64,000 bases of DNA, taken from IMG/VR virus record IMGVR_UViG_3300036760_000689, positions 32,001 to 96,000 of that record; one strand, given 5' to 3'. Below the pieces are notes generated by a model that had not been told where the DNA came from, searched no databases, and saw only the letters and a program-made list of their open reading frames with translations. Below, one piece after another: positions 6,601 to 49,627 of the stretch. Numbering within the stretch: the first letter of the stretch is position 1; each line of letters starts with the position of its first letter. The DNA comes from a virus. The position numbers and the translations under genes were made by a program.

Positions 6601-9600
6601 TGCGCGCCGTGCCTGGGGAATTCAGCAGGGCGGACACAAAATCCGCATATAATTCCTGGGATTGTCGCCGCAACCTTATGTATCCAGGTCTAGCCTTCGT
6701 AAGGTCGTAAGGATGCCAGTATTCGCTGAGGAAGATGAGTTCCTTCCTGAGTTCCTTGGCTTTGGCCATCACCCCCGGCATAGTATTTTTCAGATAGGTG
6801 CTGAGAGTCGTGAGCCGACCTAGGAGATTACCACGCTTGAGCGTTGCGGTCGGCACCCAATCAACAAGGTGACCGATTTCATGAGCGAGTACGCGCGCTA
6901 AAACCTCTCTATTTCCCGGTTCGAATAATTCAGGGCGCAACTCGATATGTTCCTTCATCCGCTCGCCTACGAAGCGGCCGTAGCTTGTTCTCAGTCTCGT
7001 GCTTAATTTGATTGCTTCCTTTACTCCGTGTTGTGATGCGATCTGGATCAGATCATCGGCAAGATTCATCAGTTCCGGAGCTTGGATCCTGCCCCAAGCT
7101 TCAATCTCAAAGATATCGACGCTCCTATTGTCGTATGGAAGGATCCGAAACCGCCTCGTTCCATCGTTAATGATCCAACCTAATGTCCCCTTTGTGATCT
7201 TCGCCGCCGAGGAGAGATCAATATCGCTATTGGCTTTCATGTCATCAGTAATCGAGGTGGGAATGGTCCCGGAGGACATTGCCGTTTTGTCGGCTTGCGT
7301 CACAGCGCTTGTGAAGAGATAGGACGGTCCCAGTTCTTCCTCACGCGTCCATATCGGCATTTCCCTTTTTTTATACTCCGCAATTTCCGGGGGTTCTGGA
7401 AGTGGCGTATAAAGCGGATCCGCCAAGGGGCCGCTGACCAATTGGGGATCGGGATGCCCTTCAAATGCAGGCATATCGGCGACCTCGGGTTGTGCCGCGC
7501 CAGCATCCACAACCTCCTGTGCGACAGGAGTTCTCTTCTTCTTTCTTCTTCTGCCGACATTGATAATGTACGACGAGGCCAAGAAGGATCTCTTGCCTCC
7601 TGCACCATATCTGTTCGCAATTTCTGGACGTGTAGCTTCTAGGTCTTCAACAAGTCGTCCTGCGAGTTTTGCTTCTTCGTAAATGCCGATATAGAGGGTG
7701 GCCTTTTCCCGTTCTGCATGAAGGAGATCCCTGCGTGCGGCGATTGCCTTGCGTTTGTCCTCGGCCTCAGGGTTATAGTCTGGATGTTCCTTCATGAGCT
7801 GGGCAAGGTGCTCCTGGTGGGATTGCATCCTTCTGCGATCCCAATCCGACCCATAACCCTTGGCAATGTCATCCTCGAGTTCCTTGATGCGTTCCTGCCT
7901 ATTTTTGATGTCGTCTTCCATCACCTTCAGGTGGTGGAGAACTCTTTCCTCGACCTGATCTATTGCCTCAAGTTCGCCATCGACCGAATGAACGGCATGT
8001 TTGGCCCGATAGTAATCCAAGGTTGCCTGCGGGATGGCTGCGGCATCGGCCAATTGCCGGAAGTTTCTGCCATCCTCGTCGAAGTCAAGCATTTCATCCG
8101 CGTTCCCTCGATATACCTCTTTGATCCATACATCCTTGCCAGCAATGGTATCGTAGAGCTTGGCATCCGACGTTCCCCTTACCAAATAACGATGGATGCG
8201 AATGCTTTCGTTCCTATTCCCTTGCCGTAAGCCGCGCCCGTCCGCTTGTTCAAGTGCAGAACCTGTCCACGGGACATCGAAATGATGGACCTGAGTAGTA
8301 TCAGTTTGAAGGTTCATGCCCTCACCCATGGATTGCCTCGAACCGATCAGGAATCGGATTTTTCCCTCCGCGTTGGCCTGCTGAATTTTGAACTTGGCAT
8401 TGGCTCCGCTGTTAATCTGCCCATTGACGATGGCAATCTGACTTTCGGGAACACCAGAATCCATCAACTTCTGTTTGAAATGTTTGTGGATATTGACCAA
8501 CTCCACAAAATGCTTGGAATTCTGTTCCTTTTGCACACTATCTTCGTCGTCACCCTCTTCAATCTTTCCCTCTTCGGTATCTACCGGCTCCTCCAGATAA
8601 CCGCCACGATAAAGATCACAGAAGATAAGTTGAGTGTTCTCTCCGGTATCACCAGCGAGCACTTCTTTAACCACAGCCTCTAACTTCGAACCGGGACCCC
8701 CAAAGGAAGCAGCATACTTCCTGGGATCGAAGATCGCGGGATCTGCCGCTAGTTTTCGCGCGAGAGTCAGGACAGAGAGGTGATTGATACCTTCGGCAGC
8801 CGCCTGCTGCAGGTGATCGTTGACGTATTCTTGCAACCATGCGATGTAGCCAGCGCACTCCGTCACTGCGTCAGTTGGATCCAAAACATGGTCAATATAG
8901 ATTCCTTCGGGACGGGGGATCTTGAGATCTTCAATCGTTCGGAAATCAACATAGCGCCGGAAGATGGCTCTCAACTCGGTCAGATTCTTATATCCTGCCC
9001 AGACCGTCTTAGCCTTAGGCACTCCGGTTGCGGTCTGGACCTCACGCGTTTCAATCCGCCCGAATTGCCCCATGAAATCGCCAGCGTTCAGGATTCCCCG
9101 ACTCGTCCACTCTTCCGGTGCCACATAACCCATCATGGCGTAGATCTCAGAAGGATGATTCGGGGTCGGTGTGGCAGTGAGCATCCAAACATTCTGACCT
9201 TTTCGACCGCCCCTGCGCTCATGGATGTAGCGGGTCTTATATTGCATGTCAGCGGCACGTTGCGACCACTTTCCTGCACGCACGTAATCCGACATGTCAC
9301 CGTAATCCTTTGGAGTATTTTTGAATCGATGAGCCTCATCCACGATGATGGCGTCGGAACCAAGATCCTCGAAAAAGATTGTGTTAGTTCTTTTCATCTG
9401 CTGCAATTTCGCGAGTTTCTCTTCGTATTTCAGGATTTGATTCTGAATTTGGGTCTCGGTACGCTTATCCTTTTTTACCTGGACGGCCCGGAGACGATCT
9501 TCGAGTTTGCGGATATCTTCTTGAATGTATTCCTCAGACTTGCGTAGCGGGATCTCCTTCATACCTTCATGAGTTATCAAGATGAAATCGGCATCGGTTA

Positions 9601-28000: not shown

Positions 28001-31000
28001 CTTCCTTTGATTTGGTGCGCCTTCATCGCTCCAGGAGGTTTGGATGTTTTCGATTTCAGGTGGTTCGGGAATGACCTTGAAATCGTGACTCCATATCTTT
28101 ACGAGGGCATCACCAGAGGGGATAAACTTGAGGCGTATCAGTCTGCCACGGAGATCAGGATCCATCGCCCGGAATATCTGGTGGCGACCATTGGCGACGA
28201 TATCCGTGAATGTTTGCGCTATTTGGCCATCCACCTGAACTTCGAGGGACGCCAGCGTTTTTCCGAATGTGTCCAACTCCAACCATAATTCGCGAAGGAA
28301 TTTGGAACCAGGATTGCCGTAGTCACTCCAGTCTGTGACGAAAGTTCTGTGGGCTTGAGGCTCAAGTAGGATCCGATGGGCGATCTTATAAAGTCGAGTC
28401 GCTGCTATCGAGGAAGCAGATGTGGTTGCAATGATTCGGATCTGGCAACGAACAGCCAGTTTGCTTTCGCCTTCTCCGCGCAGGACTGGCAGAATGACTC
28501 GCTCGCGACCTGCCGTTTGCACCACGCCAATGGGATCATACATGGCATCATCAAATGCGGCTTCAAACAAAACAGGAACGCCTTGCGTATCAACATCGAG
28601 AACAAAATCGATGAATCGCTTTTCCTGATCCGGGGCACCAAGGTCATAGTCCTTGGTATCCACAGCCCAGTAGATCCCCAGATAACCTTCCTGGCAGTGA
28701 TCGGCATAACCCATCTCTAATTGCATTGGCCATGCGCCACTGTAACGATAATCGGTTGGATCTTCGCTTGGTTCGATCGCATCATCCGATGAGACTATCG
28801 TGCCTCCAATCAGGATGTTGTTCTCAGGTTCGGTGAAGTAGCAGTACGCTCCATATAGATAGTAATGCCACCGTTCATAGATCGTGTCCCAGACGAGTAT
28901 ACGATTATTCTTGATCTCGATGTTCTGGTTGGCAGGATAGGAGAAGTAGACCTTTGAATCCCAGAAACCCATGCAACATTCTGTTTCCCTGCCGATCGAT
29001 ATCGGATCAATGTCATTCAATCGTTGGCCAAAAAATACTTGATTGATCGGTTCGGAGATTTTTCGCCCAGATGGAAATTCATAAACCCCATCGTAGGCAT
29101 GCATATAAAGAGATCGCAGGCCGCGAATGATCCCGAATTTGCTCTTCAGACCCTGGTTTACCGGGGTCGTAACCGCACGATAAGCGCCTCCGCTCCCAAT
29201 GACCCGATAAACCCTTGTAAGAGTAAAGACGAAGAGTTCGGCGTCATTTTCCATAACGCGTTGGATCTGTTCGGAGCCGGTACCTACATAGATATAGTTC
29301 CCAGCCGGAAAATGTTCAACTCGCACGGCTTTGGAAAATCGCAAGCGATTAGGTGGCTCAGGGATCAGCAGTCCGTCGTCACTGGTATAATAACCGCCCC
29401 AGGTCCACAAACGATCATCGTATAGCTCAATGCCCGATACCGCATTCATCGGTAGTTGATTATCTACTTCCAATGGTTGGCCAAGAAGTGCATCTGCTTG
29501 ATCGTCCGTAACGACAGGAGATGTTCCTGCCACATAGGGAATCTCGATATCTACCAACTGAAATTGGGTGACCGTTCCCCCCATGCGATAAAGACGGACG
29601 AAATCTGGATTGGCCTTGGGAGGTGTGGTTGATGGTAACGTCGGAATCGTGAGTGTATAGGAATCATACTGCGCACCAGGTGCGGGAACCGCGACCGCTG
29701 GGGAATAATCACTCTCCGTATTTGTTTTGGAATTATAGAAGGTATAGGCCCACTGATAATCCCAACCGAATAATTGTCCCGTGGTCAGCAGAACACAGTT
29801 GTCAAATTCCAGATTCAGGGTCTTGCCTCCCTTGGCGACGGCGATCATAGAACAATCAATTCGGATTGCGGTTACAGTCGTCCAGTTTAGATCAGGGGCT
29901 GTGAGGGCATCCCTGCCGACCCTCTTGAATTCCTCTTGATTTATCCGTTGCCTTATCCAGACACCGGCACTGGGTGGCAAAACCGTCGGTTCTCCAGTGT
30001 TATCTCTCGGATCACCGAATGTCGGATTTTCTGGATCCCACACCAACCCATATTTGTTGGCAAGCAATCCGCGAATATAGATTGGGTCCAACGTTGGAAG
30101 ATCAGAAGGATAAGCATCTAAGAATCCGTTGTTTCTTAGATATGTCAGCAGTTCGGCCCCCTGGTCACGGTCATATAGGACCTTGCCGAAAATGATATCC
30201 AAAACGCTTTCTGGCGTCGAACCAGTATATGTGATCGTTCTGCCACCCGATCCTCCGATGGTAGCAGCTTGAAATGATGAAGGCACGAAAGCCCGTTCAT
30301 AACGGGTTTGGAAGGTTATATCGCCAGCAATGTGGGACAATCCAAATGAGATTACAAATTGCGAAAGATTCAGAGACGCTTCCTCGTCAGTGAACTTAAC
30401 CCACAATTCAATGGTTTTGTCTGCAGTAATGCCGAGATTGGCCACTACAGGATATCCGCCAACAGTGATGGCTTTCTTTATGCTCCCCGTAGCCCCGTCC
30501 CCAGTTGTGATCACCTTGAGGGCATTTGTGGAAATTATCTCTGTTGGCGGGGTGGAAGCGGCAACTGTGGCATTATCCAGAGTCCATGATCCTGCGGTTT
30601 CGAAATCTTCGATATTTTGGGTGACCTCGCCAGTGTTTGCGCTGACAGTCATTTCGTGCGTGGGTCTTGGAATGCCAATCCTTGTCGCCGAAGTTGCGCC
30701 GCCCGAATGTTTGATGAACGCGGTACCATCCGTCATGAAACTATATGGTTTAATTTCTCTCCCGATCAACGTATAAGATGCAAACAAAGCACGAGGATCG
30801 GGTTCCGCTGAAAGATTGCTGCCTCCGATAACGGCCTGAAAGTGAGTGTGCTGATTGAGGGGCCAGATCAAATCGCTCTCTGGATCTTCCACGGGGGCCA
30901 CGTAAAGTTTTCCGCCAGCGATGCAATATCTCCACTGGTATCCATTCATGTCCTTGAGATAGAAAATTGAATAGGGGGCTGACGGCAAACCATCATTCAA

Positions 31001-31741: not shown

Positions 31742-32518
31742 TTATCTTCCAGGCACCACGTTAGTTTCTGTCCCCATTGTCAGTCGTTTGGCCAAGGAAA
31801 CTCCCATCAAATATCTCTGGTGGGCATAATTACTCCGCGCGACATCTTGGTTGTCCCCATCCTTGCCCAAAGCCAGAGAAAGCACCTCCCATCGAATAAA
31901 TGGTTCCCAGACAACATCCACCGATGTCGTCGTCTCATGTGATTCCGAAACAAAGAATGGCAATGGCGCAACCCTGTCGGTATCGCCATAACGCATAGGA
32001 TCAATCGGAAATATGCGCGCGGGATTCGGCAAAGGAAGCGACCGACCTGCGGTTACCACAGTAATCACGGTCGTTGAGGTATGGGGCGGCGGCAAGAGAT
32101 CACCGATGATCCGATAACTTCCACCCTGGAGAGGAACCCGATCAAATTCAAACTGCAAAACTGATGTAAGATGGTCCTCGTGATAGTAACGCGCCTTGCC
32201 GTTTGGATTTGCACGCCATTTCGGATCCTCGCGTTGCAAATCCCATGAAGTTACGCGACGCAGACGTTTTTTATTAAAGGAGATGCGATCAATATCCATC
32301 ATGTTCGAGGGTTTGGTGAAGATAAGTTGAACACCTGATATCACTGCGACCGTTGCATCCACTTTGACGATTCCAGTCTGGCGATAGAAATCTCTTTCCG
32401 CATGTTCGATATATCCTATCATCTCATCGACGGTCCACAGGCCAGAGGGAAATGTATTATCTTCCTCATGAAGATCCCGTGCGATTGCCGTCAGGAAGTT
32501 ATCAATCGAATTCGTCAT
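31742..32518 (-). CDS. Head-tail adaptor-like protein
   Basis: WTVDEMIGYIEHAERD N-terminal helix pattern; directly upstream of the nozzle. Confidence 0.65.
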   Translation of the reverse strand: MTNSIDNFLTAIARDLHEEDNTFPSGLWTVDEMIGYIEHAERDFYRQTGIVKVDATVAVISGVQLIFTKPSNMMDIDRISFNKKRLRRVTSWDLQREDPKWRANPNGKARYYHEDHLTSVLQFEFDRVPLQGGSYRIIGDLLPPPHTSTTVITVVTAGRSLPLPNPARIFPIDPMRYGDTDRVAPLPFFVSESHETTTSVDVVWEPFIRWEVLSLALGKDGDNQDVARSNYAHQRYLMGVSLAKRLTMGTETNVVPGR

Positions 32519-47907: not shown

Positions 47908-48632
47908 TTATGAGGTGATGGCACTGAACATGAAGAATAAGCGCGGTGCCGGGAATAACAGGTTTCCTGCGAACAGATACTGCCCCGCCACGTCATCCGT
48001 GTTCTGCGCCTCTTTGAAACCCGTGAACCCGAACTGATATTTGGGAAGGGTCGAGATCCAGAACTGGATGTACTTCGTGTTGAGGCCGAAGATAAAATTT
48101 GCTGGGCAATACTGATCGACGCAGACGGACGCGCCATTCCAACGCAAACTCTGGAATCCGATCTTCGCCACATCGGTTGATTCTTCCATGTATCTCTGTT
48201 GCGGCAGAATCTTGTTCCAGATGATGTTCCAGAGCGTTTGAGTGGTGACGATCAGGTCGACATGTTCGTTGCCGAACCAAGCAGCACCATAGGCGGTCTG
48301 AAATGCGGCCATCGTAAAGACTGTAGTCGAGGCATTGGAATAACCGTTGATGCCGGCATTGTTGGTGCCGTTAGCTACGCCGAGGTCAGTACGAGTAATA
48401 CCGCCATATGAGGTAAACCCTAAGGCGGTGCCATTATCCAACGCCTGCTGCATCCCATCGAGATTGATGGTTCCAGAGGTAACGCCAGTACCATCAAGGA
48501 AGATGTCGGTTCCCAGCAGTTTTGCCATCTTACCGCTGGCATTCACCATCTTGGATTCGACGTAATTCATCGCAGCCTCGGGGCCACGAGCCAGCACGTT
48601 GTCGGTACCGAAGAGGGTGACGTTCACGTAGT
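47908..48632 (-). CDS. Major capsid protein, exon 2
   Basis: IFLDGTG, YGGITR, DLIVTT, LPQQRY, GFQSLRWNG, GLNTKYI, GNLLFPAPR. Joins exon 1 in frame (..PKY YVNV..) to give 325 aa. Confidence 0.9.
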
Positions 48633-48675
48633 CAGTTATGTTATCGAGCGGTTCTTTATCCGCTCTTCAGCGCGG

Positions 48676-49311
48676 TTACTGGATGCTGCGGGAAATCGCG
48701 CTGCTCAGACTATCTCTTCCCTTTCGGGCCGGGGTCTCTTGGAGAGGATTATCGTTGGGACTCACCTCTCTAGTCGTTACACCTTCCGCAGAACCTTTGC
48801 CCTCTGCGGCTTGGCTCGGCATTGTCTCTCCCGTTGAGAGTTCCACCGATTTCACCCGGTTTGTTCTAAACGCTTGGGCATCCTTATGGTTTAGGAATTG
48901 AGTCTTCTGGCAGAGAGTTATCCGTTGTGCGAATACTTCATCGCTAACAGGCTCGTGGCCACCCTTCTCATACCTCTTGCCGATCTTCTTGCTTGATCGG
49001 TTCAACTTTTCTAATTCCAATACCGTGAACCCCTGTTCCTGTTTGATCCTCAGATAAGGAGATAGCATCTTTGCTGCGGCAATGGATGATCGTGGGGAAA
49101 GTTGCAAAGTGTGAACCATGGATGTATTGGGCGGAGTGATCGCCCCGCCAACGATATCTCGAATTTCGTACAGTACCCCAAGATTCTGCGAATAGAAGTT
49201 GATCTTCGCATAATATTCATCTCGGGTCCTGTTGGGACGCCGGGAGTGAACTATCGAGATGCTTCCGTCGCAATCCAGAAATGCTGCAACGTATTCGAGC
49301 GCCAAACGCAT
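48676..49311 (-). CDS. Intron-encoded single-motif LAGLIDADG homing endonuclease
   Basis: YVAAFLDCDGSISI, LSPYLRIKQEQ. Confidence 0.9.
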   Translation of the reverse strand: MRLALEYVAAFLDCDGSISIVHSRRPNRTRDEYYAKINFYSQNLGVLYEIRDIVGGAITPPNTSMVHTLQLSPRSSIAAAKMLSPYLRIKQEQGFTVLELEKLNRSSKKIGKRYEKGGHEPVSDEVFAQRITLCQKTQFLNHKDAQAFRTNRVKSVELSTGETMPSQAAEGKGSAEGVTTREVSPNDNPLQETPARKGRDSLSSAISRSIQ

Positions 49312-49337
49312 AGAGTACCTTCTAAGCAGCTACCGGC

Positions 49338-49346
49338 ATTATACCA
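49338..49346 (-). promoter_or_regulatory. Extended -10 promoter inside the intron for the endonuclease ORF
   Basis: TGGTATAAT 26 nt upstream of the ATG at 49311. Confidence 0.5.
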
Positions 49347-49374
49347 CAATCCAGACCGAATAGCCGCACTAAGT

Positions 49375-49627
49375 ACTTCGGCACGACCTCAAGAGCCGTG
49401 TCCGTCTGTACGTAGGTAATATTGAACGTCCCCCCACGCTGGAAAGCCCCGCCGTTCAGCTCGGCAAATGCGATGGGGTGCCGGATGGAAGTTCCACCCT
49501 CAAACCGCTCCGCGTTGCGAGTCCGAAGACGAGTGAAGACGGGAGAGCTTTTATACACATTATCCACAAGTCTCGGGATTATGTGTTTATTGACCTTTCC
49601 CGTTATGTCATCCCAAGTGAGAGCCAT
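49375..49627 (-). CDS. Major capsid protein, exon 1
   Basis: SD GGAGG; MALTWDDIT...LVDNVYKSSPVFTRL...GGTSIRHPI; follows the scaffold gene. Confidence 0.9.

Follow-up and report, generated by a model that had tools for sequence, protein, structure and literature searches.

A probable group I intron in the only major capsid gene of an uncultured phage carries a LAGLIDADG reading frame that runs through its ribozyme core

How does a phage make its shell when the only gene for its major capsid protein (MCP) is cut in two? The question is raised by a 64,000-nt stretch of a virus record (IMG/VR IMGVR_UViG_3300036760_000689, positions 32,001 to 96,000), called the window below, whose positions serve as coordinates throughout. 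The capsid gene occupies 49627..47908 on the minus strand and is interrupted by a 739-nt insert (49371..48633) on the same strand. We consider it very probable that the insert is a mobile group I intron in the sole MCP gene, with an open reading frame (ORF) for an I-CreI-like LAGLIDADG endonuclease that is read through the ribozyme core.

The capsid gene and its predicted splice junction

The first part of the gene begins with the ATG at 49627. Its ORF matches the N-terminus of the phage major head protein family phrog_9953 and diverges past residue 85, and the frame from 48630 to the stop at 47908 covers the remainder of the head protein. The expect values (E) of the phrog_9953 matches are 6e-5 for exon 1 and 5e-21 for exon 2. 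A search of 5.8 billion proteins with the exon-2 protein returned hundreds of relatives of 320-325 amino acids (aa) that hold both parts in one protein, at up to 88% identity. By tblastn, the nearest cultured relatives are found in Stenotrophomonas phage BUCT555 and Myxococcus phage Mx9, whose annotated MCPs have 27-28% identity, and a coiled-coil, scaffold-like ORF is located immediately upstream of the gene. By these matches, the split gene is a phage major capsid gene. The phage genome is a single contig of 110,116 bp with one copy of this gene, and capsid production must therefore depend on removal of the insert, a dependence that had been proposed in an earlier note on this DNA. The parts of the gene are as follows.

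49372-49627, minus strand: capsid exon 1, 256 nt, codons 1-85 and one base of codon 86; ends in U49372, the predicted 5′ splice site; phrog_9953
48633-49371, minus strand: group I intron, 739 nt, with terminal G48633 (omega G)
49322-49324, minus strand: UAG that ends the exon-1 frame on unspliced RNA; abuts the guide sequence
47908-48632, minus strand: capsid exon 2, 725 nt, from the second base of codon 86 through the stop

Alleles without the insert were used to place the junction. We fetched 29 related IMG/VR loci (L001-L029) and used 25, excluding L009, L014, L024 and L027, which have no uninterrupted junction. In all 25 intron-less alleles, one codon (TAC) separates the exon-1 match, which ends in PK[YFA], from the exon-2 match, which starts with YVN. 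These alleles read PK[YFA]YYVN, and the window's product reads PKYYYVNV when U49372 is joined to A48632 (CCG AAG UAC U / AC UAC GUG). The join would yield a protein of 326 aa that is 90% identical end to end with the intron-less protein P0002 and aligns to it with one gap fewer than the 325-aa version made from U49375. A U precedes both candidate 5′ sites, U49375 and U49372, and a covarying P1 helix is found at U49372 only. We place the 5′ splice site at U49372 because the intron-less alleles and the P1 helix fit that site alone. The earlier note was thus right about the split gene and the MCP restored by splicing, and right that unspliced mRNA terminates at 49322, where the exon-1 frame runs into the insert and meets the UAG at 49324-49322. 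Its junction at U49375 is 3 nt off and was rejected, as this site gives PKYYVNV within 325 aa, one codon short of the intron-less alleles, and its P1 is unsupported.

The predicted ligated junction reads ...AAGUACU-ACUACGUG, i.e. ...CCGAAGUACU joined to ACUACGUGAAC, and the intron-less site of the L001 type reads AAGTACTACTACGT. With this junction, the intron falls after the first base of codon 86 in the sole MCP gene. An intein was rejected because the nuclease ORF shares its frame with neither exon and has stops on both sides. Truncated capsid calls of 211-220 aa are present in public data (P0031, P0033, P0034, P0036, P0037 and P0114).

Evidence for a group I ribozyme

Homologous units of intron plus nuclease were recovered by an alignment-based search that started from the nuclease family; the capsid genes that hold them have 45-76% protein identity to the window's. 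Twelve cores were aligned, with the helices P2 to P9.1 written from the window sequence and P7 treated as a pseudoknot. The elements of the predicted RNA, in order of transcription, are listed here.

49371-49377, minus strand: P1 5′ strand, exon AGUACU and the first intron base; U49372 pairs with G49319 (from the fold and P1 covariation)
49326-49367, minus strand: P1 extension hairpin (GCGGCUA.../...UAGCUGC) in the P1 loop; a single-sequence fold, not significant alone, of varying length among homologues
49338-49346, minus strand: TGGTATAAT, an extended -10-like element in the P1 loop; candidate nuclease promoter
49314-49320, minus strand: internal guide sequence (P1 3′ strand, AGGUACU); overlapped by the GAAGG Shine-Dalgarno, with its end 3 nt ahead of the nuclease start codon
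48868-48883, minus strand: candidate P2 hairpin, weakly supported (60% of cells paired)
48859-48855 with 48733-48729 (span 48729-48859), minus strand: P3, enclosing P4, P5, P6/P6a, the P7 5′ strand and P7.1
48849-48844 with 48821-48816, minus strand: P4
48840-48836 with 48830-48826, minus strand: P5
48809-48803 with 48792-48786, minus strand: P6/P6a
48775-48771, minus strand: P7 5′ strand
48770-48765 with 48747-48742, minus strand: P7.1
48728-48726 with 48721-48719, minus strand: P8, followed by J8/7
48712-48708, minus strand: P7 3′ strand; P8, J8/7 and this strand together occupy 48708-48728
48703-48697 with 48674-48668, minus strand: P9; its loop holds the nuclease stop UAA (48678-48676)
48665-48660 with 48651-48646, minus strand: P9.1; the P9-P9.1 region is 48646-48703

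Across the twelve cores, 90.9% of cells are paired, compared with 35-43% in a slid control, in which each 3′ partner was shifted by 1-3 columns. Compensatory changes are frequent, with 31 of 58 pairs altered on both sides. None of 500 shuffles reaches the observed values, but this control overstates significance because the aligned cores are related sequences, and the slid control is the fairer one. Pairing is complete in P3 and P7.1 (100%) and nearly so in P9 (98.7%), P4 and P9.1 (both 98.6%), P7 (98%) and P6a (95%). Six double-changed pairs fall in P9 and four in P9.1, and compensatory changes also occur in P3, P4, P6a and P7.1. No core helix is disrupted in the window's copy, and the P3/P7 pseudoknot is present. 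In every homologue the intron is preceded by U, and its last nucleotide is G wherever the 3′ junction can be placed. Neither P2 (GGAUGC/GCGUUU) nor a longer alternative P2 was supported across the homologues.

The guide sequence points to the same 5′ site. It occurs at the same position in 12/12 homologues, 1-3 nt ahead of the nuclease start codon, and in every one it pairs with the last 5-6 exon bases and places a U.G at the splice site. There are five exon/guide combinations, all of which pair: GUACU/GGUAC, GAACU/GGUUC, GGUCU/GGACC, GCUGU/GCAGC and GCUCU/GGAGC. The window's own fold yields the same P1 helix.

A blastn search of 50,697 phage records with the intron found ~73-74% identity over the core (P3-P7) to the annotated group I intron 2 in psbA of Synechococcus phage S-CBWM1, and 86% identity over 44 nt at the split in a joined DNA polymerase coding sequence of E. 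coli phage 4HA13, beside an HNH gene. Further matches lie in unannotated gaps of Pseudoalteromonas phage H101 and Bacillus phage SP-15. A hidden Markov model (HMM) of the core matches both S-CBWM1 psbA introns (E 3e-17 and 1.5e-8) and finds one intron copy in the window's genome. Covariation and the likeness to annotated phage introns identify the insert as a group I intron, as the earlier note had supposed, and from this we infer that it splices. The intron is compact: it has no P5abc, P8 is 3 bp long, P7.1 stands between P7 and the P3 3′ strand, and P9.1 is present. In its P7.1 hairpin, absent P5abc and P9.1 it resembles the subgroup IA introns typical of phages, to which it may belong.

The intron encodes a single-motif LAGLIDADG endonuclease

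The insert contains one ORF of 211 codons, which divides into a folded domain and a tail.

48676-49311, minus strand: homing endonuclease ORF, 211 aa, single-motif LAGLIDADG of the I-CreI type
48844-49311, minus strand: folded nuclease domain, residues 1-156, alpha-beta-beta-alpha-beta-beta-alpha plus C-terminal helices in the AlphaFold model
48679-48843, minus strand: C-terminal tail, residues 157-211, whose codons form the ribozyme core; disorder is predicted from residue 162 on, with 157-161 as the junction to the last domain helix

As a single sequence, the product falls below the gathering threshold of Pfam PF00961 (LAGLIDADG_1), at 17.9 bits vs 23.1; the precomputed annotation of four relatives includes this family. 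A profile of 43 relatives matches I-MsoI (5e-26), I-CvuI (8e-16) and I-CreI (2e-12) over residues 4-112. The motif YVAAFLDCDGS aligns to that of I-CreI and I-MsoI; D15 and G16 are invariant, and D13 is kept in at least 90% of the 43 relatives. AlphaFold models residues 1-156 confidently, with a predicted local distance difference test score (pLDDT) mostly above 90 for residues 1-110 and 130-150 and below 50 for 162-211. Foldseek matches the model to I-CreI, I-MsoI and I-CvuI at probability 1.00 and a root-mean-square deviation (rmsd) of 1.9-2.3 Å. Superposition of residues 1-156 on I-CreI gives an rmsd of 1.9 Å over 141-143 columns and a template-modelling (TM) score of 0.74. The family profile, the model and the Foldseek matches bear out the LAGLIDADG assignment made in the earlier note. 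Single-motif I-CreI-like enzymes act as homodimers, and on its modelled fold the product is presumably a homodimer too. The intron-less site AAGTACT/ACTACGT matches its own reverse complement about the insertion point at 10/14 positions, and this near-palindrome is our candidate for the cleavage site. The closest nuclease relatives are P0122-P0127. The single nuclease sequence had no match among viral contigs, where alignment-based scans did recover relatives.

The nuclease frame runs through the whole core

The ORF frame spans P3, P4, P5, P6, P7, P7.1 and P8, takes in the 5′ strand of P9 and ends in the loop of that helix. ORF and core overlap by ~184 nt, counted from P3 to the P9 loop; inclusion of the doubtful P2 raises this to 208 nt. 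A stop beyond P7 had been noted before and is confirmed by the position of the P7 3′ strand. The arrangement is a case of 'core creep' (PMC3073962), unusually long and conserved. The encoded tail (...PSQAAEG.GSAEGVTTR.VSPNNN..HE.PARKGRDSLSS) is conserved above the nuclease domain, even at 32-38% identity, and is found in 45/45 protein clusters, the two short members being N-terminally cut.

What keeps this sequence so constant? Column entropy in the core is the same at all three codon positions (0.52/0.54/0.50, no periodicity), and column variability differs by RNA pairing (0.64 for paired vs 0.39 for unpaired columns). The linker just upstream of the core has a third-position excess (0.99, 1.04, 1.37). 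As periodicity is absent from the core and pairing status is tracked, the RNA sets the core sequence.

The open frame itself could be the outcome of passive core creep, in which the ORF runs on to the first stop it meets and the tail is irrelevant to both protein and regulation. We give this explanation somewhat less than an even chance. It fits core substitutions that follow RNA pairing and not codon position, a tail that is predicted to be disordered, and the published view of core creep as the default (PMC3073962). It does not fit the frame's persistence so well. Exactly one frame is stop-free from P3 to P7 in 12/12 cores, with 3-6 stops in each of the remaining frames, and in 11/12 the difference in length from the window's core is divisible by three. 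The tail is lost in 0/45 relatives, although the linker before it is variable. Moreover, ORF-less copies of the same core gain stops in that frame: none of the three frames is stop-free in the related cores that lack a nuclease domain, namely those of S-CBWM1 intron 2, H101, L089 and L055 and the extra L078 and L074 copies. The exception is a recent ORF-less copy, the upstream intron of L085, which is still open from P3 to P7.

These patterns are a sign of selection on an open frame through the core, with the protein tail or the act of translation as its target. That the read-through is selected and not accidental is a tentative reading, to which we assign a rather low probability. It would involve either a bistable RNA that serves as capsid mRNA or for the nuclease, or a core-encoded tail that binds the intron RNA as a maturase or autoregulator. 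If true, the family would hold a conserved dual-coding arrangement over a whole ribozyme, maintained through frame-preserving indels.

Proposed splicing, homing and expression

In the mechanism that we propose, the exon end AGUACU would pair with the guide GGUACU in P1, with U49372 opposite G49319. The core (P3-P9 with P7.1 and P9.1) would bind guanosine and cut after U49372, which would then be joined to A48632, after the terminal G48633, to give a continuous mRNA for the 326-aa capsid protein. The nuclease would cut intron-less capsid alleles of co-infecting relatives at AAGTACT/ACTACGT, and the intron would spread via repair. The last ~55 residues of the nuclease would be a floppy by-product of the RNA sequence, because the ORF continues in frame through the whole catalytic core.

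P1 would also hide the ribosome-binding site of the nuclease, and a ribosome that ends the exon-1 frame at the UAG just ahead of the guide would melt P1. Since P1 would occlude the Shine-Dalgarno and passing ribosomes would unfold the core, a given RNA molecule can probably do one or the other: splice, or be translated into nuclease. The earlier note suggested that endonuclease translation competes with folding of the ribozyme, which is plausible because the start codon lies 3 nt past the guide and the Shine-Dalgarno overlaps it. The -10-like element in the P1 loop may give rise to a separate nuclease transcript. Such a transcript would not include the P1 exon strand, and its ribosome-binding site would be accessible, in the way described for I-TevI in T4 td (PMC3073962). 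TGnTAnnnT occurs at the corresponding place in 6-7 of the 12 homologues, within otherwise unconserved sequence. In the window, TGNTATAAT occurs at chance frequency. The second perfect TGGTATAAT of the window is located at 29383-29391 on the plus strand.

Points against the intron and alternative explanations

Besides the relatedness of the aligned cores, several results weigh against the intron and its proposed expression. The group I covariance model, a check proposed in the earlier note, had a divided outcome: in permissive mode the full Rfam model RF00028 aligns to 48941-48686 (18.2 bits, E 0.065), but at the gathering threshold of 50 bits the intron has no match. The whole-window Rfam scan likewise gave no match at gathering thresholds, and no other intron in permissive mode. 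The gathering score is a detection threshold and not a biological criterion; none of the introns examined reaches it, and a capsid intron of locus L009 is also low at 22.6 bits. In the twelve-core alignment, P2 and P5 are paired in only 60% of cells, and an indel-rich loop adjoining P5 may depress its count. P1 as a fold alone is no better than shuffles (z -0.62). There is no convincing P10 helix, just a possible 3-bp CUA/UAG. The extended -10 that the earlier note had assigned to the ORF is present at 49346-49338, but its significance was not upheld, as TGGTATAAT has 2 matches in the window vs 1.33 expected, which is chance level, and no sigma-70-type promoter with a -35 was found near the nuclease ORF.

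One alternative accepts the intron but not its efficient self-splicing. The copy could be decaying, or could depend on a helper protein such as its own LAGLIDADG product acting as a maturase, a role that some LAGLIDADG proteins have, e.g. the protein of the Thermotoga neapolitana 23S intron (cited in PMC3984707). The compact core with its 3-bp P8 and no P5abc would suit this explanation, as would a conserved tail to which no role is assigned. We nevertheless regard it as improbable. The window's copy retains every core helix, and it sits in the only capsid gene of a 110-kb genome, so strong selection for splicing is expected. In addition, capsid genes of relatives (L085, L074 and L078) still contain versions of this core that lack the ORF, and the RNA therefore arguably can splice without its own protein in cis.

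It is very improbable that a free-standing homing endonuclease cassette split the gene into two polypeptides that assemble separately, as in some T4-like split genes: the exon-1 frame does have its own stop at 49322, an exon-2 ORF can be called from the GTG at 48627 and public gene calls list the second half as a separate protein of ~217-220 aa, but a complete covarying group I core and a matching guide flank the ORF, no Shine-Dalgarno precedes 48627, and the exon boundaries lie inside a codon and restore the exact homologue sequence.

Comparison with known systems

A mobile group I intron in a capsid gene has precedents. Such introns have been published for lactococcal phage Tuc2009 and mycobacteriophage LittleE (PMC3706429), and splicing of the LittleE major capsid intron was shown by reverse-transcription PCR and N-terminal sequencing (Pope et al. 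2013, PMC3706429). Like the window's, the LittleE gene holds a group I-type intron of ~0.8 kb with a U before the 5′ site, a terminal G and an I-CreI-like LAGLIDADG gene, and its capsid production depends on splicing. The LittleE nuclease (177 aa) is encoded on the opposite strand, whereas the window's is on the sense strand, starts just past the guide and is read through the whole core. The two capsid proteins are unrelated.

MCP genes of crAss-like phages of the Delta and Zeta groups contain one to several group I introns with LAGLIDADG-type ORFs; in one case four insertions divide the MCP into five fragments, and three of the four encode intron-type domains (Yutin et al. 2021, PMC7886860). 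They resemble relatives of the window's phage, which have 2-5 insertions per MCP gene (L009, L074, L078 and L085). The crAss-like phages belong to another lineage with another capsid family, and PMC7886860 describes neither ribozyme structure nor ORF-core overlap. Given the nuclease genes in the capsid introns of LittleE and the crAss-like phages, the earlier note's view that LAGLIDADG enzymes are atypical of phage introns was overstated.

Overlap of an ORF with the core and sequestration of a ribosome-binding site have both been published (PMC3073962, PMC3984707). Listed core creep overlaps are 20 nt for T4 td/I-TevI, 56 nt for B. thuringiensis nrdF and 81 nt for a LAGLIDADG ORF in the large-subunit (LSU) rRNA gene of Synechococcus lividus (Edgell, Chalamcharla, Belfort 2011, PMC3073962). 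As in the window, the ORF enters ribozyme helices in these cases, the td ribosome-binding site is sequestered by intron structure, and a separate nuclease promoter has been proposed. The tabulated maximum of 81 nt compares with ~184 nt here, where the overlap covers every core helix and is conserved, through indels that preserve the frame, across 45 protein clusters.

I-CreI, I-MsoI and I-CvuI share with the window's enzyme the single motif, the fold, the acidic residue ending the motif helix and a near-palindromic target, presumed in the window's case, with the insertion point at its centre. They come from chloroplast rRNA introns and measure 152-170 aa, compared with ~55 extra disordered residues in the window's protein, and identity is 20-23%. 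The closest annotated ribozyme core is that of S-CBWM1 psbA intron 2 (MG450654); this intron differs in being 227 nt long and ORF-less, with stops in all three core frames. Both features of the window's intron are of known kinds; the extent and conservation of the overlap are unusual.

Distribution of the intron family

The same capsid site is occupied in L074, L075, L076, L077, L033, L078 and L085. A site 15 nt downstream (NVTL/YG) is occupied in L034 and L083, and another (GGT ACU/UUC) in L085:1470-1740; in each case the guides match. The exon ends at the upstream L085 site and at the window's site are both GUACU, which fits a possible spread to new sites by reverse splicing. Some capsid genes carry two or three copies of the same ribozyme family: L074 (1016-1223, 1946-2173 and 3317-3488), L078 (1027-1244 and 1943-2164) and L085 (1511-1733 and about 1800-2006). 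In these multi-copy genes, only one copy per gene retains the nuclease domain.

The related capsid gene at L009:280-3700 (IMGVR_UViG_3300036761_003996) consists of ~six exon pieces separated by five insertions, two of which have LAGLIDADG ORFs (193 aa, single-motif; 331 aa, double-motif). Its intron 1, whose ORF also ends in ...SIQ, was rejected as a relative: the DNA aligns poorly, protein identity is 24%, and the core HMM has no match in L009. The L009 introns are thus outside the window's intron family.

The H101 gap (L031:1440-1700, KR534323 about 8000-8260) matches the core HMM with an E of 7e-12, and the SP-15 gap (KT624200 93149-93237) resembles the same group I core. Both are probably unannotated introns that split a gene.

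L036:1300-2200 (IMGVR_UViG_3300018070_000064) contains the same intron-nuclease family in a gene with no detectable similarity to the window's capsid family. Its flanks read ...KFENDDDF / ...GDAKFKAFMRFSAGF..., and we take the gene as another, putative capsid-like gene. If it is capsid-like yet dissimilar, the intron family is not confined to one host gene.

Elsewhere in the window, 1922-2047 on the minus strand has sub-threshold Rfam matches to CRISPR-DR9 (30.5 bits vs 45) and sRNA ar35 (26.1 vs 45).

Significance

The shell protein of this phage would be makeable only after RNA self-splicing, which would add to the known cases where a selfish intron is lodged in the late gene with the highest expression. 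Capsid genes of this uncultured ~100-kb phage group are systematically mis-annotated because gene callers split them and Rfam misses the intron. The intron family, which comprises at least 45 nuclease clusters, occupies several insertion sites and exists both with the ORF and without it, is a clean natural data set for the question posed by core creep, i.e. how one sequence can be both ribozyme and protein. In this family the RNA dictates the sequence of the core, yet the reading frame through it stays open.

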